Source: a virus
DNA: 64,000 bases
Direction: 5' to 3' (one strand)
IMG/VR virus record: IMGVR_UViG_3300020048_003650
Location: 1 to 64,000 of that record
Shown here: in pieces, positions 2,788 through 64,000 of the stretch
Layout: each line of letters begins with the position of its first letter
How positions within the stretch are numbered: the stretch's first letter is position 1
Translations under genes and position numbers: made by a program
Notes under the pieces: generated by a model
Databases searched by the model: none
Told to the model about the DNA's origin: nothing
What the model saw: only the letters and a program-made list of their open reading frames with translations

Positions 2788-3025
2788 CGTAATATTTTAG
2801 TACATTAGGTTACTAGATCCGATAGGATACACTGGCATAAACTGTCTCGACGGAGGTGGGTGCAGAGTGTCGTCATGAACGATGGAAACTTCTCCGAGGA
2901 GATGAAACGGTAGTCACGTCGGGCAGTCTAGAGGGTAATGTGGTAAGCGAACAGTCGTTGGACGACAACGTGGTAACCCGCCGAATGGGGGATTCGCAGA
3001 CATCCTAGTGTATTAAAATATTGCG
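2788..3025 (+). ncRNA. closing-helix RNA element 2 (~240 nt, multi-branched)
   Basis: 22-bp helix 2788-2809/3004-3025 with three G-U pairs; several GC-rich internal hairpins. Confidence 0.7.
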
Positions 3026-3221
3026 TTCTTTAATCTAATCAATTGAGCAGTGCGAAATGCACACGGGTTATCTTTACTAACCGCCTAGTGGCGTACCCCT
3101 GCCGAAGGAAATCTGGTCGTGGCAGTGATATTGATCGTGATTATCGAACGCAATACTAGCAGTACGTTGACTCCATTACGCTGGGAAGCGTAGGCCTGCC
3201 GTGAGGCACTCTACCGGAGTC

Positions 3222-3751: not shown

Positions 3752-3824
3752 GTCTCTGTAGTGTAAAAGATAACATACGACTCTGACGATGATTGTGATC
3801 TGAGTGCAATTCTCAGCAGAGATT
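3752..3824 (+). pseudogene. degenerate tRNA-like element
   Basis: 7-bp acceptor gtctctg/cagagat and T-arm ctgag-TGCAATT-ctcag are intact; anticodon stem broken, no CCA; own promoter at 3717. Confidence 0.55.
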
Positions 3825-6369: not shown

Positions 6370-6437
6370 CACATTCACTTGACAATAAATCAAGTTCGTA
6401 GTATAATATACATATATTAAATCATAGGAGTAGTAAA

Positions 6438-6593
6438 ATGAAACGAAAATCGTTCGTTGTGCCAGCAGCGGTACCTCGCAATCCATTTGCAGGACTGGCA
6501 CGTGCTCGTGTAGCGGGTAGTCATCGTAAGTCTAATAAGGCGGTGCGCCGGCAAGACAAGCAAAATCATTATGCCCTCGAAGCTTTAAGGTGA
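6438..6593 (+). CDS. small basic protein (51 aa) overlapping tRNA-Lys
   Basis: own promoter (TTGACA 6379) and AGGAG RBS; MKRKSFVVPAAVPRNPFAGLARARVAGSHRKSNKAVRRQDKQNHYALEALR; below the ORF-track cutoff. Confidence 0.7.
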   Translation: MKRKSFVVPAAVPRNPFAGLARARVAGSHRKSNKAVRRQDKQNHYALEALR

Positions 6594-6647
6594 AGCAACG
6601 GACTTTTAATCCGTAGAACTGGGATCACTGGCCCAGCGGGGGTACCA
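6573..6647 (+). tRNA. tRNA-Lys(TTT), atypical T-loop
   Basis: gccctcg/cgggggt acceptor, acgga-CTTTTAA-tccgt, T-loop ATCACTGG, CCA. Confidence 0.8.
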
Positions 6648-6654
6648 TTGTCAA

Positions 6655-6728
6655 CATATTGAAACGTATTCAAGTAGATCGATCAACGCAGAATTTTACC
6701 GAATTTTGTCAGAGTACGTTTCAATATG
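6655..6728 (+). ncRNA. closing-helix RNA element 6
   Basis: catattgaaacgtattc/gagtacgtttcaatatg, 17 bp; fills the tRNA-Lys to tRNA-Met spacer. Confidence 0.55.
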
Positions 6729-6803
6729 GTGATATAGCTTAGTTGGTAGAGCAGGTCCTTCATACGGACAAGGTCGGGGGTTCAAGTCCCTCTTTCACCA
6801 CCA
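6728..6803 (+). tRNA. tRNA-Met/Ile2(CAT)
   Basis: gtcc-TTCATAC-ggac anticodon arm, TTCAAGT, CCA; lacks initiator features. Confidence 0.88.
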
Positions 6804-6808
6804 ACAAC

Positions 6809-6898
6809 GGAAGCGTGGCAGAGTCCGGTTTATTGCAACAGTCTTGAAAACTGTCGATCCGAAAGGGTCCGTGAGTTCGAATCTCACCGCTTCCTCCA
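6809..6898 (+). tRNA. tRNA-Ser(TGA)
   Basis: acagt-CTTGAAA-actgt, long variable arm, CCA. Confidence 0.95.
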
Positions 6899-6912: not shown

Positions 6913-7140
6913 ATGTATAAAGTATATTGGACCAATTCAGACGGTCAAGCATGCAGTCAAGATTATTCAGAGATGATAGAGGCACTTACTGAGACTAATC
7001 ATTTACGTGCCATAGGTAGAGCATATGTTGCTATGTGTAGCGAAAATCCTAATCGAATTGGCACAATGGGCGTAGCCGGAGTAGAAGATGGTAAGTTGCC
7101 AACAGGCGAAAAATATACATGGCAAAAACGTAGAAGTTAA
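6913..7140 (+). CDS. hypothetical protein
   Basis: 75-aa ORF between tRNA genes. Confidence 0.7.
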   Translation: MYKVYWTNSDGQACSQDYSEMIEALTETNHLRAIGRAYVAMCSENPNRIGTMGVAGVEDGKLPTGEKYTWQKRRS

Positions 7141-7147
7141 TTTAATA

Positions 7148-7222
7148 CGGTCCTTCGTTCAACGGATAGGATTCCAGGCTACGAACTTGGAGATGGAGGT
7201 TCGATTCCTTCAGGACCGGCCA
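7148..7222 (+). tRNA. tRNA-Arg(ACG)
   Basis: ccagg-CTACGAA-cttgg, TTCGATT, CCA. Confidence 0.92.
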
Positions 7223-11663: not shown

Positions 11664-13100
11664 ATGGAATATATTGTCTGGCTGTTATTAGGAACAATTT
11701 ACGGAACAATAGTTGGGGTTATTCCTATCGCAGGAGCAACTATTGGTCTGTTGGTTGTTTTTGGCATGACTGACATGTTTTTGGCAAATCCGTATCTTGG
11801 TGTGGTATTCATGACGAGTTTTCTAGGAGCAGTTAGTAGCAGTGACAGCTTCACTAGTATACTTACTGGAATTCCTGGTTCTGGTTCAACAGCCGCTTCA
11901 ATCATCGATGGCTATCCAATGGCAAGAAATGGCCAGGCTGGCAGGGCTATTGGCGCTGCTCTCATGGACTCGTTAATCAACGGAGTAATCTGGGGAATAC
12001 TGGCATTTGGACTTATGCCATTTTACAGTATGCTCATATTATCATTTGGTATACCAGAATTTGCCGCACTGATGTTTGTTAGTTTGACTTGTGTTGGATT
12101 TATTACTGTTAGTAATCCACTGTTAAGTGTAATCAGTATCGTTCTTGGACTGTTTCTTGGTTTAATAGGCCAAGATCCAGGAACTAGTGCACATAGATTT
12201 ACATTTGGCTGGGAGTATCTAGCTGCTGGGATTCAAATGATTCCCATGATTGCCGGACTATTCGCTGTACCAGAGATTATTGAATCAATTAAAAACAAAA
12301 CAATAAAACCACCCGCTATTGTTAATTATTGGTCTCAACTGTTTCAGGGATTTAAAGATTGCTTTACTAATTGGCGAGATATGATAAGAGGTGGTGCCAT
12401 AGGATTTTTTACGGGAATATTACCAGGAGTTGGTGGCAGTGCTGGTGATATGATGGCATATGGGGCGACTGTTGCAAAACATCCAAATGAAAAATTTGGC
12501 AATGGAAATGTAAAGGGTCTCATAGGATGCGAGGGGGCGAATAATGCTCAAAAACCAGCAAGTCTTATTCCAACTGTTTTATTTGGAATTCCAGGTGCAC
12601 CATTTGCTGCCATTATGATGGCAGTTTGTATGAGTCTTGGTCTAGAACTAGGCACTGCGTCGCTTTTGAATGATGAAAAATTTATTCTTGCTCTAGGCGG
12701 AGGATTTGTACTTAGTACTATTTTAGGATTTGTTATTTGTGTTTTTATTGCAAAATATATTGTAAAAATATTAGAAATACCATCATGGATATACGCATCA
12801 ATTATAACTGTGATTGTGGTATGGAGCAGTTTTCAATACTCGGGAACTATCAACGATCTTTATATTTTGATACTATGTGGAATTATTGGAATTTTATCAA
12901 AGAAAATAGGACTAAGTAGACCAGCAATCTTGTTGGCATATGTAGTAGCCGAAAAATTTGAAAATTATACACAACAAGCTCTTACTCTCTACACACCGTT
13001 CGAGATTATTTCTCGTCCAGTAGTTGGAACATTGATTATAGTATCTATTGTAATCATTGGCTATAGCATCAAAAAATACAAAGGCATTTCTTATAATTAA
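11664..13100 (+). CDS. tctA: tripartite tricarboxylate transporter permease TctA
   Basis: polytopic; SILTGIPG, DGYPMA, GILPGVG, EGANNA, LFGIPG motifs. Confidence 0.9.
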   Translation: MEYIVWLLLGTIYGTIVGVIPIAGATIGLLVVFGMTDMFLANPYLGVVFMTSFLGAVSSSDSFTSILTGIPGSGSTAASIIDGYPMARNGQAGRAIGAALMDSLINGVIWGILAFGLMPFYSMLILSFGIPEFAALMFVSLTCVGFITVSNPLLSVISIVLGLFLGLIGQDPGTSAHRFTFGWEYLAAGIQMIPMIAGLFAVPEIIESIKNKTIKPPAIVNYWSQLFQGFKDCFTNWRDMIRGGAIGFFTGILPGVGGSAGDMMAYGATVAKHPNEKFGNGNVKGLIGCEGANNAQKPASLIPTVLFGIPGAPFAAIMMAVCMSLGLELGTASLLNDEKFILALGGGFVLSTILGFVICVFIAKYIVKILEIPSWIYASIITVIVVWSSFQYSGTINDLYILILCGIIGILSKKIGLSRPAILLAYVVAEKFENYTQQALTLYTPFEIISRPVVGTLIIVSIVIIGYSIKKYKGISYN

Positions 13101-19025: not shown

Positions 19026-20174
19026 ATGTATACAACAATCGAGAGAGTTCACTTAGAAGTTACCTCACTATGCAATGCCAGATGTCCACAATGCATGCGC
19101 AATTTTCGAGGAACAGAGCATCTAAAGCCAGGAGTACAGGAAACCGAAATGTCAGTTGAAACTATCAGCAAAATATTCCAGGATGAAAACTTCAAGGATT
19201 TAAAATCAATTTTAATCAATGGTAATTACGGCGATATCATAATGCACTCAGATCCATTGGCAGTTGTACAATTTTTAAGAGTGAAATATCCTACTGTCAG
19301 AATATTCATTCATACCAATGGCGGAGCACTCAAGGAGTCATTCTGGTCCGATCTAGCCAAACTTGATCCTATTGTGGAATTTGGAATAGATGGTCTAGAG
19401 GACACCCATCATTTGTATCGAAGAAATACAAATTTTAAAACCGTCATCAAGAATGCAACCGCTTTTATTGCCTCGGGCGGATCAGCTGAGTGGGTAATGA
19501 ATGTATTTAAACATAATCAACACCAAATTGAAAGTTGCAGGGCAATGTCACAGGAATTAGGATTCAGTAAATTTACGCATAGAATCAGTACCCGGGGACT
19601 TCCAGAAAACGCCACAATAGTATTTGACAAAGAATTAAATCTGGACTATTTACTGGAGGTATCAGATTTATTACCGGATAACACGATAGAAATAAAACCA
19701 GTTGAGTTTTACGTAAAAAAATCTTCTAGAATGAGAGAGAAATTTTTAAAGACTAGAAACCTATCGACTGACAACATTATTAATCCTACGTTAAAAATCA
19801 ACTGGATTGAACGGAATTCTGAGAAATTATCGCTGCCTGTTCATTGTAAAGCATCTGACGTCGGTGAGGTATATATTTCCGCACAGGGCATGATATATCC
19901 TTGCTGTTGGCTCGGAATACAGAGGGCCGATGGTCATGCTCACTATTATCATGACTTTGTATCTATGTTAGAAAAAAATGGTGTTAGTCCAGACGATTTC
20001 GACTTGAATAAACGTACATTAACAGAAGTTTTAAACGGTGAGTATTTCAGTACCATCTCTAGATCATTTACAAATAATGATCGCTTGATGAAGTGCTCCG
20101 AGGTATGCACTTCATCAAGTTATTACGATAAGATGCTTTTATCTAAGTTAGAGAATATTGACCGAACGACATGA
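19026..20174 (+). CDS. radical SAM protein with SPASM/twitch domain
   Basis: CNARCPQC; C-terminal YPCC and C..VC. Confidence 0.9.
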   Translation: MYTTIERVHLEVTSLCNARCPQCMRNFRGTEHLKPGVQETEMSVETISKIFQDENFKDLKSILINGNYGDIIMHSDPLAVVQFLRVKYPTVRIFIHTNGGALKESFWSDLAKLDPIVEFGIDGLEDTHHLYRRNTNFKTVIKNATAFIASGGSAEWVMNVFKHNQHQIESCRAMSQELGFSKFTHRISTRGLPENATIVFDKELNLDYLLEVSDLLPDNTIEIKPVEFYVKKSSRMREKFLKTRNLSTDNIINPTLKINWIERNSEKLSLPVHCKASDVGEVYISAQGMIYPCCWLGIQRADGHAHYYHDFVSMLEKNGVSPDDFDLNKRTLTEVLNGEYFSTISRSFTNNDRLMKCSEVCTSSSYYDKMLLSKLENIDRTT

Positions 20175-23202: not shown

Positions 23203-23385
23203 CGGGCAGTTTTTATCGGTTGATTCTTAAATATTGATCGCTATCTTTGCATCTGATTATTGAATGACTAAATATCACTGTGAATCTACTGGGATATTAA
23301 AATGACTGATGATTGGAAGAAGAAAATAAACCAGATACAAAAGAATAAGTTCTTTTGTCCAAGGCCATTTGTAGAAATAATCAGT
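23203..23385 (+). repeat. ~183-bp direct repeat, copy 1
   Basis: near-identical to 24648-24830; covers the late promoter and the first 28 codons. Confidence 0.9.
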
Positions 23386-24603
23386 AACAACAAAGAAAAA
23401 TATGGTCCTTGTTGTTACAGCAACGCAGGCATGCCCAGTAATCAAGGGTTGGACGATCAAAGACCCTTTGATTGGTTCGCTCAAGGGGATGATCTACAAG
23501 CACTGCGAGCCGTGATGTTGGGCAAGCAGGATAATCCCGGGTTATTGGATCAAGTCTGTGGCTTTTGTCGAGTTCGCGAAGCTCAAAACATAACCAGCCC
23601 TAGACAAACATATATCGAGCGTTTTCTTAGAAATTTGGTTGAAGGTGAGCAGTGGAGTGATGCCGACATGGCACTGATCACTGAGCGTATAGTCACTTGG
23701 TCCGGGCATGAGCCCTGGACTACCGATCTCGGCACCGTGGCTGTGCGTATGCGCTTGTTTGGCAACTACTGCAACCTACGTTGTGTTAGTTGCGGACCCA
23801 ACAGCAGCAGCCAAATACAAACAGAATATAAGAAGATTATTAAACTAGAACCCGGATCTAGGCTCAGAGCCATGGGCATTGTTGATCAATCAAACCTGAA
23901 AATTTCCGGGCTTGTCCAAGCACAACAGAACGTCATCGACAACATTGACAAGGTTCGTAGCATACTATTGATAGGGGGTGAGCCCTTGTTGACTCCGGGG
24001 CATTTTGAATGGCTGGATAAAATTGTGGCTTCGGGGCATGCCGGCAGAATAGAACTTAGATATCAAACCAATCTAACAGAGATGCATAGATATGCCAATC
24101 GTATATTTCAGTATAAGCAACATTTCCAACGTATATTCTTTATTGGCAGTATAGACAGCTTTGAACACAGAAACGACTATGTACGTTGGGGTAGTACATG
24201 GAGTAAACTGATGGAAAATATAGGCCTGGTGCAGACACAGGGTTTGGGTTTAACCATTAACATCACAACCACTTGGCTCACATCTCTATGGGTAGGGCCC
24301 TTATGGGATCATTTGCATAGAACTTTCGGTATCGACGCTGAGATCAACGGCAGCGTGGTCAATAGACCCACACATCTTAGACCCAGGCACCTGCCCCAGG
24401 AGTTCAAAGAAACTGCCCTCAATCATCTTGAGTATTATGTCAAGGATCCTCTACGCTATCAAGTATTGGCCCAGGAGTTGGCGCATCCTCAAGATCCCAG
24501 ATTGTTTAAACTGGGAATAGAATATTTAGAAACACTGGATCGCAGTAGAAAAGCCAATTGGTTAGCAGTGTTCCCGGAGTTTAAGCCCCATGCCCATAAA
24601 TAA
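23302..24603 (+). CDS. radical SAM protein with N-terminal twitch-like domain, copy A
   Basis: FCPRPF...PCC, CNLRCVSC, GGEP. Confidence 0.88.
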   Translation: MTDDWKKKINQIQKNKFFCPRPFVEIISNNKEKYGPCCYSNAGMPSNQGLDDQRPFDWFAQGDDLQALRAVMLGKQDNPGLLDQVCGFCRVREAQNITSPRQTYIERFLRNLVEGEQWSDADMALITERIVTWSGHEPWTTDLGTVAVRMRLFGNYCNLRCVSCGPNSSSQIQTEYKKIIKLEPGSRLRAMGIVDQSNLKISGLVQAQQNVIDNIDKVRSILLIGGEPLLTPGHFEWLDKIVASGHAGRIELRYQTNLTEMHRYANRIFQYKQHFQRIFFIGSIDSFEHRNDYVRWGSTWSKLMENIGLVQTQGLGLTINITTTWLTSLWVGPLWDHLHRTFGIDAEINGSVVNRPTHLRPRHLPQEFKETALNHLEYYVKDPLRYQVLAQELAHPQDPRLFKLGIEYLETLDRSRKANWLAVFPEFKPHAHK

Positions 24604-24647: not shown

Positions 24648-24830
24648 CGGGCAGTTTTTATCGGTTGATTCTTAAATATTGATCGCTATTTTTGCATCTG
24701 ATTATTGAATGACTAAATATCTCAATGAGCCTACAGGGATATTAAAATGACTGATGATTGGAAGAAGAAAATAAACCAGATACAAAAGAATAAGTTCTTT
24801 TGTCCAAGGCCATTTGTAGAAATAATCAGT
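24648..24830 (+). repeat. ~183-bp direct repeat, copy 2
   Basis: offset of 1445 bp from copy 1. Confidence 0.9.
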
Positions 24831-26045
24831 GACACTAAAGAAATGTATGGTCCTTGTTGTTATAGTCGTATGCCCAGCCAAACATCGTTGGCTGATCGGC
24901 CACCGTTCGATTATTGGAGTTCCGATCAAGAATTTCAGAATCTTCGCAGACATATGTTAGGGCTATCAGATCATAGTGAAATTGTCAATAAGGCCTGTAA
25001 GTTGTGCTTAACTCGCGAATCACAGAATATACCAAGTCCCAGATTCACATACAATGACAGATTTTCAAAAGGGCATATTGAAGGACAGGACTGGAGCGAT
25101 GATGATATGAATCGTCTAGCAGATCAGATTCTACAATGGAACGGAGATTCTGATTGGAAGGCCATGGACCATTCAGTGGCCGTTCGAATGCGCCTATTTG
25201 GTAATTTCTGTAACCTACGTTGTGTTAGTTGTAGTCCATTGAATAGCAGTAGAATACAGTCAGAATATCAAAAAATAATTGACCTAGAACCAGAGAACAT
25301 GGAACTCACGTCAATGAAAATCATATCTGAGAAGGTAATTGACAATAGTAGTTTATTAGAAGCTCAACAGAATGTGATTGACAATATTAAATCAGTCAGG
25401 AGTATACTGTTGATAGGAGGCGAACCGCTGCTAACTCCCGGTCATTTTGACTGGTTGGATAAAATAGTGGCCTCAGGATATAGCGGTCAAATTAACTTGA
25501 GATATCAAACAAACCTGACAGAACTGCACAGATACGCCGAGAGAATATTTGACTACAAACAACATTTTGATGGCATATACTTTATTGGCAGCGTTGATTG
25601 TATTGGACAAAGAAACGATTATGTTCGTTGGGGAAGTTCCTGGAATCAAATACAAAAAAATATTGATACTGTTTTTTCGCACGGTATCGATATCACTATA
25701 AACATTACTACTACATGGTTGACAGCGCCATGGGTTGGCGAACTATGGCATGAGATATATAAACGCTGGGGTATCAAAGCTATAATTAATGGCAGTGTAG
25801 TCAGTAGTCCTTATCACTTGAGTCCTAGGCATTTGCCTCAGGACCTAAAAGAAAAAACAATAGAAAGTTTAAAACGCTACGTTGATAGTCCTGAAAGATA
25901 TAGTGTGCTAATAGCGGAACTATCTCGGCCACAAGATAACGAACAGTTTAAGTTGGGTCACCGATTCCTAGAAACATTAGATCGTAATAGAAAAACTGAT
26001 TGGTTAGAGTTTTTTCCTGAATTCAGGCCGTACATAGATAGATAG
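24747..26045 (+). CDS. radical SAM protein, copy B (tandem paralog)
   Basis: same motifs as 23302-24603. Confidence 0.88.
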   Translation: MTDDWKKKINQIQKNKFFCPRPFVEIISDTKEMYGPCCYSRMPSQTSLADRPPFDYWSSDQEFQNLRRHMLGLSDHSEIVNKACKLCLTRESQNIPSPRFTYNDRFSKGHIEGQDWSDDDMNRLADQILQWNGDSDWKAMDHSVAVRMRLFGNFCNLRCVSCSPLNSSRIQSEYQKIIDLEPENMELTSMKIISEKVIDNSSLLEAQQNVIDNIKSVRSILLIGGEPLLTPGHFDWLDKIVASGYSGQINLRYQTNLTELHRYAERIFDYKQHFDGIYFIGSVDCIGQRNDYVRWGSSWNQIQKNIDTVFSHGIDITINITTTWLTAPWVGELWHEIYKRWGIKAIINGSVVSSPYHLSPRHLPQDLKEKTIESLKRYVDSPERYSVLIAELSRPQDNEQFKLGHRFLETLDRNRKTDWLEFFPEFRPYIDR

Positions 26046-39126: not shown

Positions 39127-41175
39127 ATGATTAAACGCATACTACTCTCGCCATGGATGGCTCTACTTACACTCACTCTTGTAGTGTTAGTTCGAGTTAT
39201 AGATCCCGCGTTCGTAGAGAGCGTTAGATTAAGATATTTTGATACCTTAATCGTCAACAAGCCCGCGACAGAAAACAATATCTATACTGTAAATATTGAT
39301 GAAACAGCGATTGACGAGTACGGCCAGTGGCCGTTCAATCGTTCTGTGTATGCTGATATTATCAATGATTTATATAAGCGTGATGCTGGTCTCGTAGTAT
39401 TCAATGTGTTAATGTCTGAGACTGATCGATCACGTGGCGACGGCGTACTCGCTAAAACTATGCAGAAAGCACCTGTCATATTACCAAACATACCCGCTGA
39501 ACAAACAAAGAACACGCCAAAAAATCCCGGTGTGGCGATATTAGGTCCCCAATATCTCAATACGGTAATCACGTACCCGGGCATTATTGCTAACATACCA
39601 GTATTAGAAAATGCTGCAGCCGGTGTAGGAATAGTTAACACTCTGCCAGAAATTGATGGAGTAAATCGTAGACTACCGCTAGTAGTCGCTGCAAATGAAA
39701 AACTCTATCCTAGTATGGCACTAGAAGTACTCAGAGTGGCAGCTGGTGACCCTAGTTTTCAAATCAAACTAAATGAATCAGGTGTAGAGCGATTACGGAT
39801 TCCAAAGTTTGGACCAATATCAACAGATAATCTTGGTCGCATATGGATTGATTGGAGTCAACAGTCTCGTTCAGTATCGCTATCAGAACTACCTGATAAT
39901 TTAGACGGTGCTATCGTGATAGTTGGTCTCACTGCTGCTGGTATCAGTAACCCTGTTCCCACTGCAGTCGGAGCCCAATTTCCGCATTATGTACAAGCCG
40001 CTGTGATAGGCACCATGGCCAATGGCGTCAACATTCAAAGACCAGGCTGGGCAGATGGTGCTGAACTTTTAACTCTGTTTGCTGTGGGTGTTTTACTTTT
40101 ATTTTTAACCGGTTGGACCTATGTTGGAATTATCAGTGGTATTGTTGTTATTGTTGCTTTGTATCCTATTTCCCTGTATGTTTTCACGAATCATTTGTGG
40201 CTTGTTGATATCACTTCTGCTGCTGGTCTTGTTGTCGTGTTACTTCATGCTTATGGCACTAAGTTTGTAAGTGAGTTCTTACAGAAACAAGCAATCAAAC
40301 GACAGTTTGCAGGTTACGCATCACCAACAGTTGTGAAGTTGTTACAAGAGAATCCAGACTTAATTAAGCGTGGTGTTAAGCGTGAAGTATCTATCTGTTT
40401 TAGCGATCTCAGGGGCTTTACGCCATTAGGCGAAAGTTTCGGTGATGATGTCGGCGGCTTAACTGAAGTCATGAACGGTTACATGGATGCTATTACTCAG
40501 CCAGTGCTGGAAGCCAACGGTATGATTATCAAGTACATCGGTGACGCTTCAATGCATATTCACAATGCTCCTATTGAGGACCCCGACCATGCAAAAACAG
40601 CGGTGAGAGTAGGACTCCGGATGGTCGAGGCTGTACGGGAATTCAGTAAACAGTTGGAGGCTAAAGGTCGACCGGGTGTTAAGATGGGTGCTGGTATCAA
40701 TACAGGACTTGGTTACATTGGCGAGATGGGCTCTACTCAACGACATAGTTATGATGTACTAGGTGATGCTGTATCTACTACTGCCCGTATTGAGAGCAAG
40801 TGTAAAGAATATGGCTGTGTGCTGTTGGTCGGAGAAAACACAGTCAAACAGTGCGGAGATGATTTCTTGTTTCTCAAGATTGATGATCTGGCGGTCAAAG
40901 GCAAATCAGTTGGAGTTGGCATCTACACGGTGTTAGGCGTCATTGGTGATGCCACGCTGCGACAGGTTAGAGCGCAGAGAGAACACGATGAAATGCACAC
41001 GCTGTATCGTGCTCAGAAGTTTAGTGAAGCAATCGAAATGTGTGAAGAACTAAAATCGGAGTTTGATGGAAAAATGACAGACTACTACGACATGTGGATA
41101 GAACGCTGTGAATTTCAAAAGACACAGCGTCTACCGGCTGATTGGTCGGGCGTGTTTATTGCCCAGTCCAAGTAA
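39127..41175 (+). CDS. CHASE2-domain class III adenylate/guanylate cyclase
   Basis: IDE.....GQWP, DGV.R, TM segments, FSDLRGFT, KYIGDA, GINTG, GDAV..AR.ES. Confidence 0.92.
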   Translation: MIKRILLSPWMALLTLTLVVLVRVIDPAFVESVRLRYFDTLIVNKPATENNIYTVNIDETAIDEYGQWPFNRSVYADIINDLYKRDAGLVVFNVLMSETDRSRGDGVLAKTMQKAPVILPNIPAEQTKNTPKNPGVAILGPQYLNTVITYPGIIANIPVLENAAAGVGIVNTLPEIDGVNRRLPLVVAANEKLYPSMALEVLRVAAGDPSFQIKLNESGVERLRIPKFGPISTDNLGRIWIDWSQQSRSVSLSELPDNLDGAIVIVGLTAAGISNPVPTAVGAQFPHYVQAAVIGTMANGVNIQRPGWADGAELLTLFAVGVLLLFLTGWTYVGIISGIVVIVALYPISLYVFTNHLWLVDITSAAGLVVVLLHAYGTKFVSEFLQKQAIKRQFAGYASPTVVKLLQENPDLIKRGVKREVSICFSDLRGFTPLGESFGDDVGGLTEVMNGYMDAITQPVLEANGMIIKYIGDASMHIHNAPIEDPDHAKTAVRVGLRMVEAVREFSKQLEAKGRPGVKMGAGINTGLGYIGEMGSTQRHSYDVLGDAVSTTARIESKCKEYGCVLLVGENTVKQCGDDFLFLKIDDLAVKGKSVGVGIYTVLGVIGDATLRQVRAQREHDEMHTLYRAQKFSEAIEMCEELKSEFDGKMTDYYDMWIERCEFQKTQRLPADWSGVFIAQSK

Positions 41176-57145: not shown

Positions 57146-58351
57146 ATGAGTAGCATATTACATTGTTCCTTCTGTGGAAAACATAAAAACGCCGTTAAAA
57201 AATTAATCGTCGGTGACAGTTCAGCAATCTGTAATGATTGTATTGAACTGTGCACGGATTTATTACTATCCGATACTGAATTAGATGTTCAGTCTGAATC
57301 TAAACGTGTTAGTTTATTTCCAGATGATATCAAACGTTTTTTAGACGAATACATTATCGGCCAAGATCGTGCCAAAAAAATAATAAGTGTCGCCGTTGCC
57401 AATCACTATAAAAGAATAAACAATAAAAGCGATAATATCACTGTTCAGAAAAGTAACGTGTTGATAGTTGGTCCAACCGGTAGCGGAAAAACTCTGCTTG
57501 CTAAAACTGTTGCCAAATATCTAGATGTTCCATTTGTAATAGCAGATGCAACTAGTTTAACCGAGGCTGGTTACGTTGGCGACGATGTAGAAAGTATGAT
57601 TACTAGATTGTTGGCGGCGGCCGGCGGCGATGTTGAACGTGCTGAACGAGGAATTGTTTTTATTGACGAAGTTGATAAAATTGCTAGAAAGAGTGAAAGT
57701 GCTAGTATTACTAGAGATGTCTCTGGCGAGGGTGTTCAACAGGCACTACTAAAATTAGTAGAAGGCACTGTGTGTAGAATATCACAAGACGGTAAAAGAA
57801 AAAATCCCAGTCAATCAATGATAGAAATAGATACTACTAATATCTTGTTTATCGCTGGTGGTGCATTTGTCGGATTAAGACAGTTAGTAGAAAATAGAGT
57901 CAGCGGAAATAGTATTGGATTTTCTGCATCAGTTGCAAATAAAGATAACAACATTGAGTATCTTGATCAATTGATGCCGGACGATCTTACTAAGTTCGGT
58001 ATGATACCAGAATTTACTGGCAGATTTACCAGCATTGTTAATATTACTGAACTAGATAAAGAGCAGTTAATACGAATCCTTACCGATGTTAAAAGTAACT
58101 TTATAGATCAATACACTTATCTATTTGGACTAGATGATATCGAATTACGTTTTGAAGCGGAGGCTATTGAAAAAATCGCAGAAAATTGTCTTAGATTAAA
58201 AACTGGCGCAAGGGGTCTACATAATGAAATGGAACGAGTTCTGATGCCTCATATGTATGAGATACAATCTTACATAAAAAACAACACTCGTCTGATAAAT
58301 ATTACCAGTGAACTAGTAGATAGTCCCACAGTATTACTGGAGGATAAATGA
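57146..58351 (+). CDS. clpX: ATP-dependent Clp protease ATPase ClpX
   Basis: C4 zinc finger, GPTGSGKT, GYVG, IDEVDK, RDVSGEGVQQ, IGF loop, GARGL. Confidence 0.96.
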   Translation: MSSILHCSFCGKHKNAVKKLIVGDSSAICNDCIELCTDLLLSDTELDVQSESKRVSLFPDDIKRFLDEYIIGQDRAKKIISVAVANHYKRINNKSDNITVQKSNVLIVGPTGSGKTLLAKTVAKYLDVPFVIADATSLTEAGYVGDDVESMITRLLAAAGGDVERAERGIVFIDEVDKIARKSESASITRDVSGEGVQQALLKLVEGTVCRISQDGKRKNPSQSMIEIDTTNILFIAGGAFVGLRQLVENRVSGNSIGFSASVANKDNNIEYLDQLMPDDLTKFGMIPEFTGRFTSIVNITELDKEQLIRILTDVKSNFIDQYTYLFGLDDIELRFEAEAIEKIAENCLRLKTGARGLHNEMERVLMPHMYEIQSYIKNNTRLINITSELVDSPTVLLEDK

Positions 58352-58559: not shown

Positions 58560-59132
58560 ATGATAGTCTATATTCATGGAGCCAACGCTACTGGTTCAAG
58601 TTTTAATTACTTGCGAGATCATTTAAAATATGATGATTTAGTAATTGAATATGACAGTAATAATGGCTTTATGAATAACGTGAATTTAATATCTGATCGA
58701 TTAAAAGACATTGATGAAATGTTTTTTATAGGTCACAGTCTAGGTGGAATTTATGCGCTACATTTATCTGAAATATTCGCTGATAAAATTCTAGGAGCCG
58801 TAACTCTAAGCACACCCTATAACGGAGCAGAATGTGCTGAATATGCTAAACATTTTTGGCCTAGGCATAGACTATTTCGTGATATCGGTCCATCAAGTGA
58901 ACCTATTAAACGTAGTAAAGAAATATCAATACCTCATCCATGGACAAATGTAGTATCTACTAGTGGCTCAAACCCACTAATTATTTACCCTAATGATGGT
59001 GTAGTTACAATAAATAGTATGAAGTGCAGAAATGATATGACTCTGATAGAAATCCCAGTCAATCATTATGAAGTGGTATTAAGTCCACTTTCGCTAGAAA
59101 TTATACAAGGAGAATTAAATGGCCTACGGTGA
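58560..59132 (+). CDS. alpha/beta hydrolase
   Basis: IHGA, GHSLGG, NDGVV, NH. Confidence 0.85.
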   Translation: MIVYIHGANATGSSFNYLRDHLKYDDLVIEYDSNNGFMNNVNLISDRLKDIDEMFFIGHSLGGIYALHLSEIFADKILGAVTLSTPYNGAECAEYAKHFWPRHRLFRDIGPSSEPIKRSKEISIPHPWTNVVSTSGSNPLIIYPNDGVVTINSMKCRNDMTLIEIPVNHYEVVLSPLSLEIIQGELNGLR

Positions 59133-60519
59133 AAAAGTTTTGGATCACTATGAAAATCCAAGAAATGTAGGATCATTGGATAAAAATGATCCTGAAGTTG
59201 GAACAGGCATGGTTGGTGCACCTGCATGCGGCGATGTTATGAAGTTACAGATTAGAGTAGAGAACGACATCATTATTGATGCTAAGTTTAAGACATATGG
59301 TTGTTTGACTAGCAATACCATGGTAAATACTCCAACAAAATCCAAGAAAATTTCTGATTTAAATGTTGGAGATGAAGTTCTCGCGTGGAACGGCGAAACA
59401 ATCGTCAATCAAAAAATCAAAGAAATAATTACACACAGTGTGCCGGTAGAAGAGTTATTAAAAATAACGTTTCAAAGAGAATCGCACCGTAAAAATATGA
59501 GACCAGGTACATTTTCTTTAATCTGCACGAAAGAACATGTTTTTTGGAATCATGATAATAAACCAATACTTGCTCAAGATTTAAAAATCAACGATGAGCT
59601 GTATGAAATAACAGAATACGAATTGAGAAAATTGACCAATGTTCGTCATCGGTCTGAATTAAAAAATAAAAACAGCGAAAGAATGTATGAGTTTAATAAA
59701 ATTTTTGACCATTCTGTTCTTCCTCAAAACCAAAAAGGTTACGTACATTCTGAAGAATTTTCTAAGAAAATAAGCGCATCATCTAATAGAAATTGGTCTA
59801 ATCCTATCTACATAGAGAACTGGAAAAATGGTATGGCTTCAATCGTCTGGACAAAACCAACAAGCGTAGAACAAAAATACATAGACCTCTTTGAGGAAAA
59901 TAACGTAGCGGTCAAATGGAGTTCTGGAAAAATATGGATTCAAACAGACTGTGGACCAGCCAGCCCAGATTTTATTGTTCCAGGTAAGAAAAAATGTATT
60001 GAGGTGTATACAAAGCGTATGCCTAAATTTATGCAAGATCGTTCCGAAGAATCGGATTATGTATTCAAAAGAACGCAACAATTAGCGTCTGCTGGATACG
60101 AAACTTTATTTTTGGCCGTAGAAGATATCGACGATTCATTACCTAAGGTCCAGAATTTTGTTCACAACGGGATGAAGATAACAAGTGTTTCCTCAATCGA
60201 TCACAAAAATATTTTGCGTGGTTGTCAACGTGACGGGAAAAATGTTATTGTTTATGATTTGAAATTAGAGGATGGTGCCCATGTATTTTTCACGAATAGG
60301 GTCGGGTCACATAATTGCGGCAGTGCGATTGCCAGTTCGTCATTGGTAACTGAGTGGGTCAAGGGCAAAACGCTTGACGAGGCTGGAACAATTCGTAATA
60401 CAGAAATTGCTCAGGAACTTGCCTTACCACCCGTTAAAATCCACTGCAGTATTCTGGCGGAGGATGCAATAAAAGCAGCAATAACGGATTACAGAAAGAA
60501 ACATGATATTGCCAATTAA
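59119..60519 (+). CDS. iscU: Fe-S scaffold IscU interrupted by an intein
   Basis: NPRNVG, APACGD, FKTYG|intein|CGSAIASSS, LPPVKIHC; spliced length 128 aa. Confidence 0.93.
   Translation: MAYGEKVLDHYENPRNVGSLDKNDPEVGTGMVGAPACGDVMKLQIRVENDIIIDAKFKTYGCLTSNTMVNTPTKSKKISDLNVGDEVLAWNGETIVNQKIKEIITHSVPVEELLKITFQRESHRKNMRPGTFSLICTKEHVFWNHDNKPILAQDLKINDELYEITEYELRKLTNVRHRSELKNKNSERMYEFNKIFDHSVLPQNQKGYVHSEEFSKKISASSNRNWSNPIYIENWKNGMASIVWTKPTSVEQKYIDLFEENNVAVKWSSGKIWIQTDCGPASPDFIVPGKKKCIEVYTKRMPKFMQDRSEESDYVFKRTQQLASAGYETLFLAVEDIDDSLPKVQNFVHNGMKITSVSSIDHKNILRGCQRDGKNVIVYDLKLEDGAHVFFTNRVGSHNCGSAIASSSLVTEWVKGKTLDEAGTIRNTEIAQELALPPVKIHCSILAEDAIKAAITDYRKKHDIAN
59302..60315 (+). mobile_element. intein (338 aa) with an internal PD-(D/E)xK-like endonuclease
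   Basis: starts CLTSNT, block B CTKEH, block F VYDL, ends SHN before Cys; internal PTSVE...PDF...CIEV. Confidence 0.88.
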
Positions 60520-63437: not shown

Positions 63438-64000
63438 ATGACAAAAGATAATATTTCTGTTGAATCACAGGACGGTGAGCCTGGTGATTTTCTAAGAAAA
63501 TATGGAATTTATGTATTCATGGATGAGGTCACCAATGAAACCATCAAGCCAGTAATAGAATGGATACTACACGAGAATTATGTGGTAAAGAATAAAAAGA
63601 AAGAATTACTATTAATGATCTGTAGTGACGGCGGCGAATTAAGTAGCGCATTTGCACTAATTGATACAATGAGATCTAGTCATATTCCAATTAAAACAGT
63701 TGGACTTGGATTGATTGCCAGTAGTGGGTTGTTGATTTTTATCAGCGGCGCAAAGGGTAGAAGAATTTTAACTCCCAACACCAGTATCTTAAGTCATCAA
63801 TTTTCTGCAGGTTCAGAAGGAAAATCTCATGAACTATTTGCCACTGTTCGAGAGTTTGAATTAATTAACAAGCGTTTGATAGAACACTATCGTTTATGCA
63901 CAGGTCTAGATACTGATACTATCACGGCAAGATTATTGCCGGCACAAGATGTGTGGTTAGATCACGAATCTGCTCTGGAACTTAATATCTGCGATAGTGT
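63438..64000 (+). CDS. clpP: ClpP-like protease subunit (runs off the window end)
   Basis: manual translation: ICSDGG, IASSG (Ser), SHQF (His), QDVW (Asp). Confidence 0.88.
   Translation, partial: MTKDNISVESQDGEPGDFLRKYGIYVFMDEVTNETIKPVIEWILHENYVVKNKKKELLLMICSDGGELSSAFALIDTMRSSHIPIKTVGLGLIASSGLLIFISGAKGRRILTPNTSILSHQFSAGSEGKSHELFATVREFELINKRLIEHYRLCTGLDTDTITARLLPAQDVWLDHESALELNICDS

Follow-up and report, generated by a model that had tools for sequence, protein, structure and literature searches.

A phage ORF encoding a small, basic protein runs without a stop codon into the tRNA-Lys gene that follows it, and the same stop-less design, with exchangeable devices at the same position, is conserved across a set of related phage loci. 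The anatomy of the locus, the selection on its protein, this conserved design, a link to tmRNA and a similarity to the N-terminus of ArfA were all observed. The explanation that I favour, with a confidence a little above even, is that the ORF encodes a divergent ArfA-like rescue factor, translated from a non-stop mRNA made by RNase P and held down by trans-translation, a function that I infer from this arrangement. It is also proposed that the message of the ORF doubles as the 5' leader of the tRNA-Lys precursor. Evenly poised, in my judgement, is the wider proposal that tRNA 5' maturation serves as a programmed device for making non-stop mRNAs, with the leader encoding a rescue factor that accumulates according to how much trans-translation capacity is left over, in a partly phage-encoded system; the family would then form a large, virus-borne and uncatalogued relative of the ArfA lineage, able to exchange tRNA-Lys, tRNA-Ser and RNase III-type hairpins as truncation modules.

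The ORF and the tRNA cluster of the window

The window, by which I mean the whole 64,000-nucleotide stretch of DNA that was analysed, covers the initial 64 kb of a 104,535 bp IMG/VR virus record that is ~30% complete according to CheckV. Because its CHASE2-adenylate cyclase shows 49.5% identity to that of Methylophilales phage Melnitz, the phage can be placed, by sequence, among large aquatic myophages of the general Melnitz kind. ARAGORN identifies 13 tRNA genes on the + strand between positions 442 and 7345. An additional tRNA at 3752–3824 scores 37.2 bits with Rfam, above the cut-off, and is not reported by ARAGORN. The features of the locus are as follows.

6379–6407, + strand: sigma-70 promoter (TTGACA 6379–6384, 17-nt spacer, TATAAT 6402–6407), identified by consensus match
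6426–6430, + strand: Shine-Dalgarno sequence AGGAG, ending 7 nt upstream of the ATG
6438–6572, + strand: predicted functional coding part of the ORF, 45 codons (MKRK...KQNHY), its last base being tRNA position −1
6573–6593, + strand: tail of the ORF (ALEALR and TGA), obtained by translating the acceptor stem and D arm of tRNA-Lys
6573–6647, + strand: tRNA-Lys(UUU) with an encoded ACCA and an 8-nt T-loop variant (ARAGORN; Rfam)
6651–6732, + strand: long hairpin between tRNA-Lys and tRNA-Met, touching tRNA-Met at 6728 (folding against shuffles)
6728–6898, + strand: tRNA-Met(CAU) and tRNA-Ser(UGA) (ARAGORN)

The ORF (6438–6593, + strand) starts with ATG and has 51 codons, its product being MKRKSFVVPAAVPRNPFAGLARARVAGSHRKSNKAVRRQDKQNHYALEALR. 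The promoter matches the consensus at 12/12 positions and is the top-scoring site between 3000 and 9000. An earlier note on this DNA had described the promoter, the AGGAG site and the ORF, and had placed its last six codons and the TGA within a tRNA-Lys starting at 6573; this description is exact to the base. The final complete codon ahead of the tRNA is Y45 (6570–6572), whereas codon 46 starts at 6573, base 1 of tRNA-Lys, and codons 46–51 (ALEALR) lie within the tRNA together with the TGA (6591–6593). Since codon 46 begins with the first tRNA base, a cut at tRNA +1 would leave an mRNA ending after the complete codon 45, with no stop, and the …NHY terminus that the earlier note expected is indeed the one encoded directly ahead of the tRNA. 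The tail of the ORF is thus predicted to be lost from the mRNA through RNase P.

The tRNA itself appears sound, scoring 45.7 bits against a cut-off of 29 with the Rfam tRNA model (RF00005), and being called Lys(UUU) by ARAGORN. A single cloverleaf accommodates 20 tRNA-Lys genes from related loci, with compensatory changes in 20 of its 21 pairs, and CCA is encoded in all of them. Its T-loop is atypical, as had been remarked: it is of the A54 type, with GATC… replacing GTTC…, and in the window the loop is longer by one base. The GATC… T-loop defines a subgroup found in six related loci (L001, L013, L017, L042, L061 and L074), which argues that the atypical loop is a feature of the lineage and not a sign of decay. 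The 8-nt T-loop of the window copy could nevertheless slow RNase P.

The hairpin at 6651–6732 has an MFE of −27.8 kcal/mol (z = −5.0), and its closing helix (CATATTGAAA…TTTCAATATG) is similar to a hairpin found 3' of the homologous ORF in L031. It is likely to be a processing element of the ORF-tRNA-Lys transcript. The tRNA-Met and tRNA-Ser genes, downstream on the same strand, are probably co-transcribed with this unit, and no terminator-like site was found between 3000 and 9000.

Several other genes of the window were observed in passing. The CHASE2-adenylate cyclase, at 39127–41175, is common to Melnitz and pelagiphage HTVC008M. Three radical-SAM proteins are encoded close together (19026–20174, 23302–24603 and 24747–26045), with a TctA-family transporter nearby (11664–13100). 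A 466-aa ORF at 59119–60519 has a NifU_N domain in two stretches and a weak match to a Hint module, and its product may be an intein-interrupted NifU-like protein.

The protein family and its stop-less layout

A word-indexed protein search identified nine relatives, most of which end in …YALEALR, that is, in the tRNA read in frame. When 1.84 billion representative proteins were searched with a profile, the family extended to 552 clusters with a threshold of E up to 1e-3; tightening this to 1e-10 left 72. Its conserved core, ~40 residues long, is N-terminal. Among family representatives the predicted total lengths vary from 42 to 176 aa, and the tails of many are translated tRNA, with anticodon-loop signatures (AFN or LLT) and T-arm signatures (GSNPS or FKSL). 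These gene-caller lengths (protein matches P0010–P0158) include tails that are annotation artefacts, inflated because translation was continued across one tRNA, or even across two. This flags a systematic annotation error, in which ORFs are called with meaningless, tRNA-read tails of 1–130 residues.

The central element of the family is a 12-codon block encoding A-G-(S/A)-H-R-K-S-N-K-A-x-R in 47/47 distinct DNA versions; in the window protein the invariant AGSHRKSNKA spans residues 26–35. Across these 47 versions, variability at codon positions 1, 2 and 3 of the motif is 0.14, 0.07 and 0.45, respectively, and codons switch between families, with serine encoded by either TCN or AGY, and arginine by either CGN or AGR. 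Because of this third-position variation and these codon-family switches, the sequences indicate that the protein is under selection and that the gene is real. An AGGAG or GGAG-type site is located directly upstream of the start in most of 41 distinct relatives, and ATG starts are conserved. Promoters matching the consensus at 11–12 of 12 positions, and ending 19–30 nt upstream of the start codon, are found in 11 of 55 distinct upstream regions from relatives.

No Pfam family matched consistently among 148 family representatives, and the window protein gave nothing in Pfam, NCBIfam and PHROGs beyond a weak match to phrog_5655 (E = 0.065). The ESM Atlas returned unnamed viral clusters, as well as a cluster in which 16% of the members have DUF7230 (score 0.86); membership in DUF7230 was rejected, as no family member matched it in Pfam. 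A scan of genome contigs for bacterial relatives yielded two matches to AGSHRKSNK, in a Saccharibacteria MAG and in Adhaeribacter, both spurious on inspection; as the scan used this single narrow pattern, it is no proof of absence. A search of full-text literature found no publication on this family, or on non-stop mRNAs generated by tRNAs.

Its carriers are apparently large aquatic phages. The same overlap between ORF and tRNA is found in an isolate, Synechococcus phage BUCT-ZZ01, where it is part of an annotated 48-aa CDS. Two distant relatives have no nearby tRNA: that of Variovorax phage V45v66 possesses its own stop, while that of Acidovorax phage ACP17 (L003, about 2989–3141) is an unannotated frame. 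The latter (…RNPLVKPSLFRKAGRHGKSNKALRK…) has no ATG, and overlaps the CDSs on either side, the preceding one at its end and the following one at its start.

The layout was analysed in 76 phage loci from IMG/VR that contain a relative, in which tRNAs were located with ARAGORN and scripts. The ORF runs into tRNA-Lys(UUU) in 60 of these loci and into tRNA-Ser(UGA) in two. The earlier note had held beforehand that homologues stopping ahead of the tRNA would count against its proposal; an in-frame stop precedes the tRNA in 0/62 of these tRNA-abutting loci, so homologues do keep their stops beyond the processing site. This recurrence, in 62 of 76 loci and with no stop ahead of the tRNA, places the arrangement far beyond chance.

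The 5' end of the tRNA is found 49–59 nt past the point where the Gly codon of the motif starts in the 62 loci. The stop, on the other hand, is located anywhere from +3 to +125 nt relative to the tRNA start, in or past the tRNA, and the junction between ORF and tRNA occurs in all three codon phases, giving tails of 1–40 residues in any of the three frames. As the distance is fixed while the position and frame of the stop are free, selection maintains the spacing between motif and module rather than the stop codon. In 20 loci the stop is just 3–7 nt inside the tRNA, so that the processed and unprocessed products would differ by only 1–3 residues.

Thirteen of the 14 loci without an abutting tRNA have instead a near-perfect hairpin of 15–34 bp, which begins +50 to +70 nt past the motif, the region where the tRNA would start, and the stop is again in or beyond this element. 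Six of the hairpins were checked against shuffles, with z values of −4.4 to −8.7. In terms of anatomy, 75 of the 76 loci therefore have a putative truncating element (tRNA 5' end or long hairpin) at constant spacing, and reach their stop only beyond it. Judged by sequence, tRNA-Lys, tRNA-Ser and the long hairpin appear as three interchangeable, putative RNA-processing modules at one position. What distinguishes ArfA- and BrfA-type regulation, an RNA-processing element within the ORF and ahead of any stop, is likewise present here as far as the anatomy goes.

In six loci (L046, L052, L053, L055, L060 and L075), the hairpins replacing tRNA-Lys are 18–19 bp long and lie about +50 to +110 nt past the motif. 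They contain TTGACA…TATAAT promoter-like boxes in the loop and 3' arm, and their last base directly adjoins the tRNA-Met that follows. Since these boxes are inside hairpins that end at tRNA-Met, one DNA segment may here be both a promoter and an RNA processing hairpin.

Relation to ArfA and to the tagging machinery

Judged by the usual sequence tests, the family falls outside ArfA in statistical terms. Neither the window protein nor its BUCT-ZZ01 homologue matches the ArfA family PF03889 (cut-off 25.5 bits) at E up to 10, 0/148 family representatives match it at E up to 0.01, and no match is found anywhere in the phage's own genome record; phage ArfAs, employed as positive controls, score 25.7–71.4 bits. 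The mRNA-channel motif KGKGS(Y/F) is not present in the family, the invariant motif being AGSHRKSNKA.R, and the earlier note was right that the window protein itself does not possess KGKGS. Profile searches at E up to 10 against all PDB chains retrieved no ArfA, BrfA or other rescue factor, and no sequence relationship to B. subtilis BrfA (PDB 6SZS). With hhalign, comparison to E. coli ArfA alone, or to small ArfA alignments, gave no signal (probabilities of 0.05–0.1%), and AGSHR was placed over KGSYM with a probability of 0.05%. An alignment of 158 family sequences to 51 ArfA-type sequences was full-length, spanning 41 columns, with P = 0.018 and a probability of 2.6%; 14 of 300 column shuffles reached the real score.

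The N-terminus presents a closer similarity. A member of the family (L035, MLVKPKNIFAVLANKRKAGSHRKSNKA…) and a bona fide phage ArfA (L167, MLVKPKNIFAKALANKLFAQRIVKPKKGKGSYTRK…; 42.2 bits with PF03889) are identical at 14 of 16 N-terminal residues (blastp-short, E = 3.5e-10), with many synonymous differences between their DNA sequences. More generally, the N-termini of phage ArfAs, (K/R)NP(I/V)A(K/R)xL…, are much like the family's RNPF(A/V)xLA. In ArfA, residues 15–31 of the N-terminal region contact RF2 (PMC6299226). These comparisons suggest that the family is probably a divergent offshoot of viral ArfA, which has kept the N-terminal module, while its linker is shorter and its channel-binding motif another one.

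Annotated ArfA genes from phages already exist. True ArfA is found in pf16, Arash, J2-1, XM05, RXM and RsoM2USA, among other phages, and is abundant in IMG/VR, with at least 196 loci. A tRNA is located immediately downstream of bona fide viral ArfA in 0/57 distinct peptides; for 56 of these there is none within 1.5 kb, and in the remaining case it is ~1.2 kb away.

The window phage also encodes components of a tagging and degradation pathway, listed below.

1–165, + strand: 3' (coding) part of a two-piece tmRNA, truncated at the contig start (Rfam)
57146–58351, + strand: phage ClpX (Pfam AAA_2, 3.5e-31; zf-C4_ClpX, 4e-14; ClpB_D2-small)
63501–64000 in the window, continuing to 64004 of the contig, + strand: first of two phage ClpP genes (PF00574)
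64147–64686 of the contig, outside the window: second phage ClpP gene (PF00574)

The tmRNA piece scores 34.6 bits with the Rfam model beta_tmRNA and 32 bits with tmRNA_permuted, both matches being cut at the 5' end. Its tag frame, at 67–99, encodes ANEDSFLMAA followed by a stop, and it aligns with permuted tmRNAs that are complete in related contigs and encode the tags ANDSKFALAA, ANDEAFLMAA and ANDSSFAIAA. ClpX is the unfoldase in the degradation of ssrA-tagged proteins. The two ClpP genes match PF00574 with 89.7 and 246.1 bits, and no SmpB or release-factor gene was found in the 104-kb record. Together, tmRNA, ClpX and ClpP would give the phage its own tag-and-degrade machinery.

This association extends to related phages. 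A permuted tmRNA above the Rfam cut-off is present in 15 of 28 family-bearing contigs of at least 50 kb, and in 5/6 of the family-bearing contigs that are at least 90% complete; searching the 13 contigs without a permuted tmRNA for a one-piece tmRNA gave only tRNA-level matches. The frequency of tmRNA among phage genomes is 2.3% (PMC9004378). Based on the phage tmRNA, ClpX and ClpP, and on the co-occurrence with tmRNA, the tagging-and-degradation arm of the model appears to travel with the gene.

Proposed mechanism and comparison with known systems

In the proposed mechanism, the consensus promoter would produce a transcript consisting of the leader, the ORF, tRNA-Lys, the hairpin and tRNA-Met. 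Cleavage by RNase P at 6573, the +1 position of the tRNA, would release an upstream mRNA ending after codon 45 (Y), and ribosomes translating this stop-less message would stall at its 3' end. As long as trans-translation has spare capacity, the two-piece tmRNA of the phage (tag ANEDSFLMAA), or that of the host, would tag the peptide, to be destroyed by ClpXP. When tmRNA is saturated, for example through mRNA decay in infection, the 45-residue peptide would be released untagged and accumulate. By analogy with ArfA, its basic AGSHRKSNKA.RR tail may then enter the empty mRNA channel of other stalled ribosomes, while the N-terminal RNPF..LA module may recruit a host release factor, freeing them. 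Cleavage by RNase P in vivo, tagging by tmRNA, binding to the ribosome, recruitment of a release factor and rescue activity are thus predicted from the anatomy and from this analogy. Coupled transcription-translation could also reach the TGA before processing, giving the 51-aa product.

It is conceivable, though I consider it unlikely, that the stop-less design and the control by trans-translation are real, but that the peptide made upon tmRNA saturation is another ribosome- or RNA-binding effector or sensor, such as a translation modulator for host takeover, or a tRNA-Lys-linked factor, for instance one protecting against anticodon nucleases that cut tRNA-Lys. Such a role would agree with the failure of the family in the ArfA membership tests, and a very basic peptide suits any RNA binder; furthermore, 60 of the 62 tRNA-abutting loci use tRNA-Lys(UUU), a preference that the rescue hypothesis leaves unexplained. 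However, the N-terminal module is common to a true ArfA, the size, charge pattern and regulation mirror those of ArfA, BrfA and ArfT (PMC8012679, PMC6299226), and the family co-occurs with tmRNA. The identity of the tRNA also does not appear essential, because the place of tRNA-Lys can be taken by tRNA-Ser or by a hairpin. No reading offered here explains the near-exclusive use of tRNA-Lys; the gene and its tRNA may be inherited as a unit.

Two further explanations give non-stop translation no part. Ordinary tight packing, in which the ORF merely borrows its stop from the next tRNA and the full-length product is made normally, ahead of processing or in its absence, would fit the 20 loci whose products differ by 1–3 residues, and translation coupled to transcription could outrun RNase P. 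I nonetheless regard it as improbable: across very diverged phages an own stop has been acquired in none of the 62 loci, the tail varies freely in length (1–40 aa) and frame (0, 1 or 2) while the spacing to the tRNA does not, and where hairpins take the tRNA's spot the stop is again past the start of the element. Moreover, other genes of the window's tRNA cluster stop ahead of their tRNAs, as does ORF 6913–7140 before tRNA-Arg at 7148. Hardly credible is the suggestion that the ORF goes untranslated and that what is conserved is merely a non-coding leader belonging to the tRNA-Lys precursor. The location in a tRNA operon would be consistent with it, as would the observation that about two thirds of the relatives have no promoter of their own close upstream, but all 47 DNA versions encode the motif, with mostly third-position variation and Ser TCN/AGY switches, and the Shine-Dalgarno sites and ATG starts are conserved.

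The known back-up rescue factors regulated through non-stop mRNAs (ArfA, BrfA) are all bacterial and narrowly distributed. The present family, with several hundred sequence clusters, would follow the same regulatory logic by a new route, RNase P excising a tRNA from the message. If this is true, phages would deal with the ribosome stalling of infection through a full set of phage-encoded tools (tmRNA, ClpXP and a back-up factor), and tRNA genes would gain a second role, as mRNA-truncating signals. The Melnitz-like marine and freshwater myophages have the same kind of permuted tmRNA as the window phage (PMC9004378); the paper describing the Melnitz tmRNA makes no mention of ArfA, ClpX or a stop-less peptide gene (PMC9004378), and Melnitz itself, when searched by tblastn with E up to 10, yielded no relative of the peptide.

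Further small rescue factors, unseen by homology searches, are expected in the field (PMC8012679). ArfT of Francisella tularensis is one such protein that is invisible to homology searches, as is the present family. It is also similar in its length of ~40 residues, and its basic C-terminal KKGGSTNKK (PMC6299226) resembles KAGSHRKSNKA, as compared by quoted motif; in contrast to the scheme proposed for the family, it has its own stop and no regulation by truncated mRNA (PMC6299226). BrfA (YqkK) of Bacillus subtilis, which arose independently of ArfA (PMC8012679), differs from the family in having a rho-independent terminator in its ORF, in being restricted to Bacillus, and in showing no sequence similarity by PDB profile search. 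In both known systems the truncating element is within the ORF, an RNase III hairpin or terminator for arfA and a terminator for brfA, and the products are substrates for tmRNA tagging (PMC8012679).

The most extensive parallel is with ArfA (YhdL, PF03889), the RF2-dependent rescue factor of E. coli and other Proteobacteria, phage versions of which are annotated, for example in Pseudoalteromonas phage J2-1 and Citromicrobium phage RXM. Both proteins are tiny and basic, with a predicted active form of 45 aa here against 52–55 for ArfA, and in both an RNA-processing element ahead of the stop in the ORF leads to a non-stop mRNA and to control by tmRNA, as predicted here from anatomy. Like viral ArfA, the family has the N-terminal module RNP(F/I)(A/V)..LA, and as in ArfA its C-terminal part is rich in Lys and Arg, with an invariant Gly-Ser and a His. 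In contrast to ArfA, it has neither a PF03889 match nor KGKGS(Y/F), with AGSHRKSNKA.R(R/K) instead, the segment between the N-terminal module and the basic motif is ~8–10 residues shorter, and the main device predicted to truncate the message is a tRNA, acted on by RNase P, in place of the RNase III hairpin or terminator of arfA. If the proposed function is true, this would provide a natural ArfA-like series, with a common N-terminal module and a different channel-binding motif, in which to study release-factor recruitment to ribosomes that lack a stop codon.
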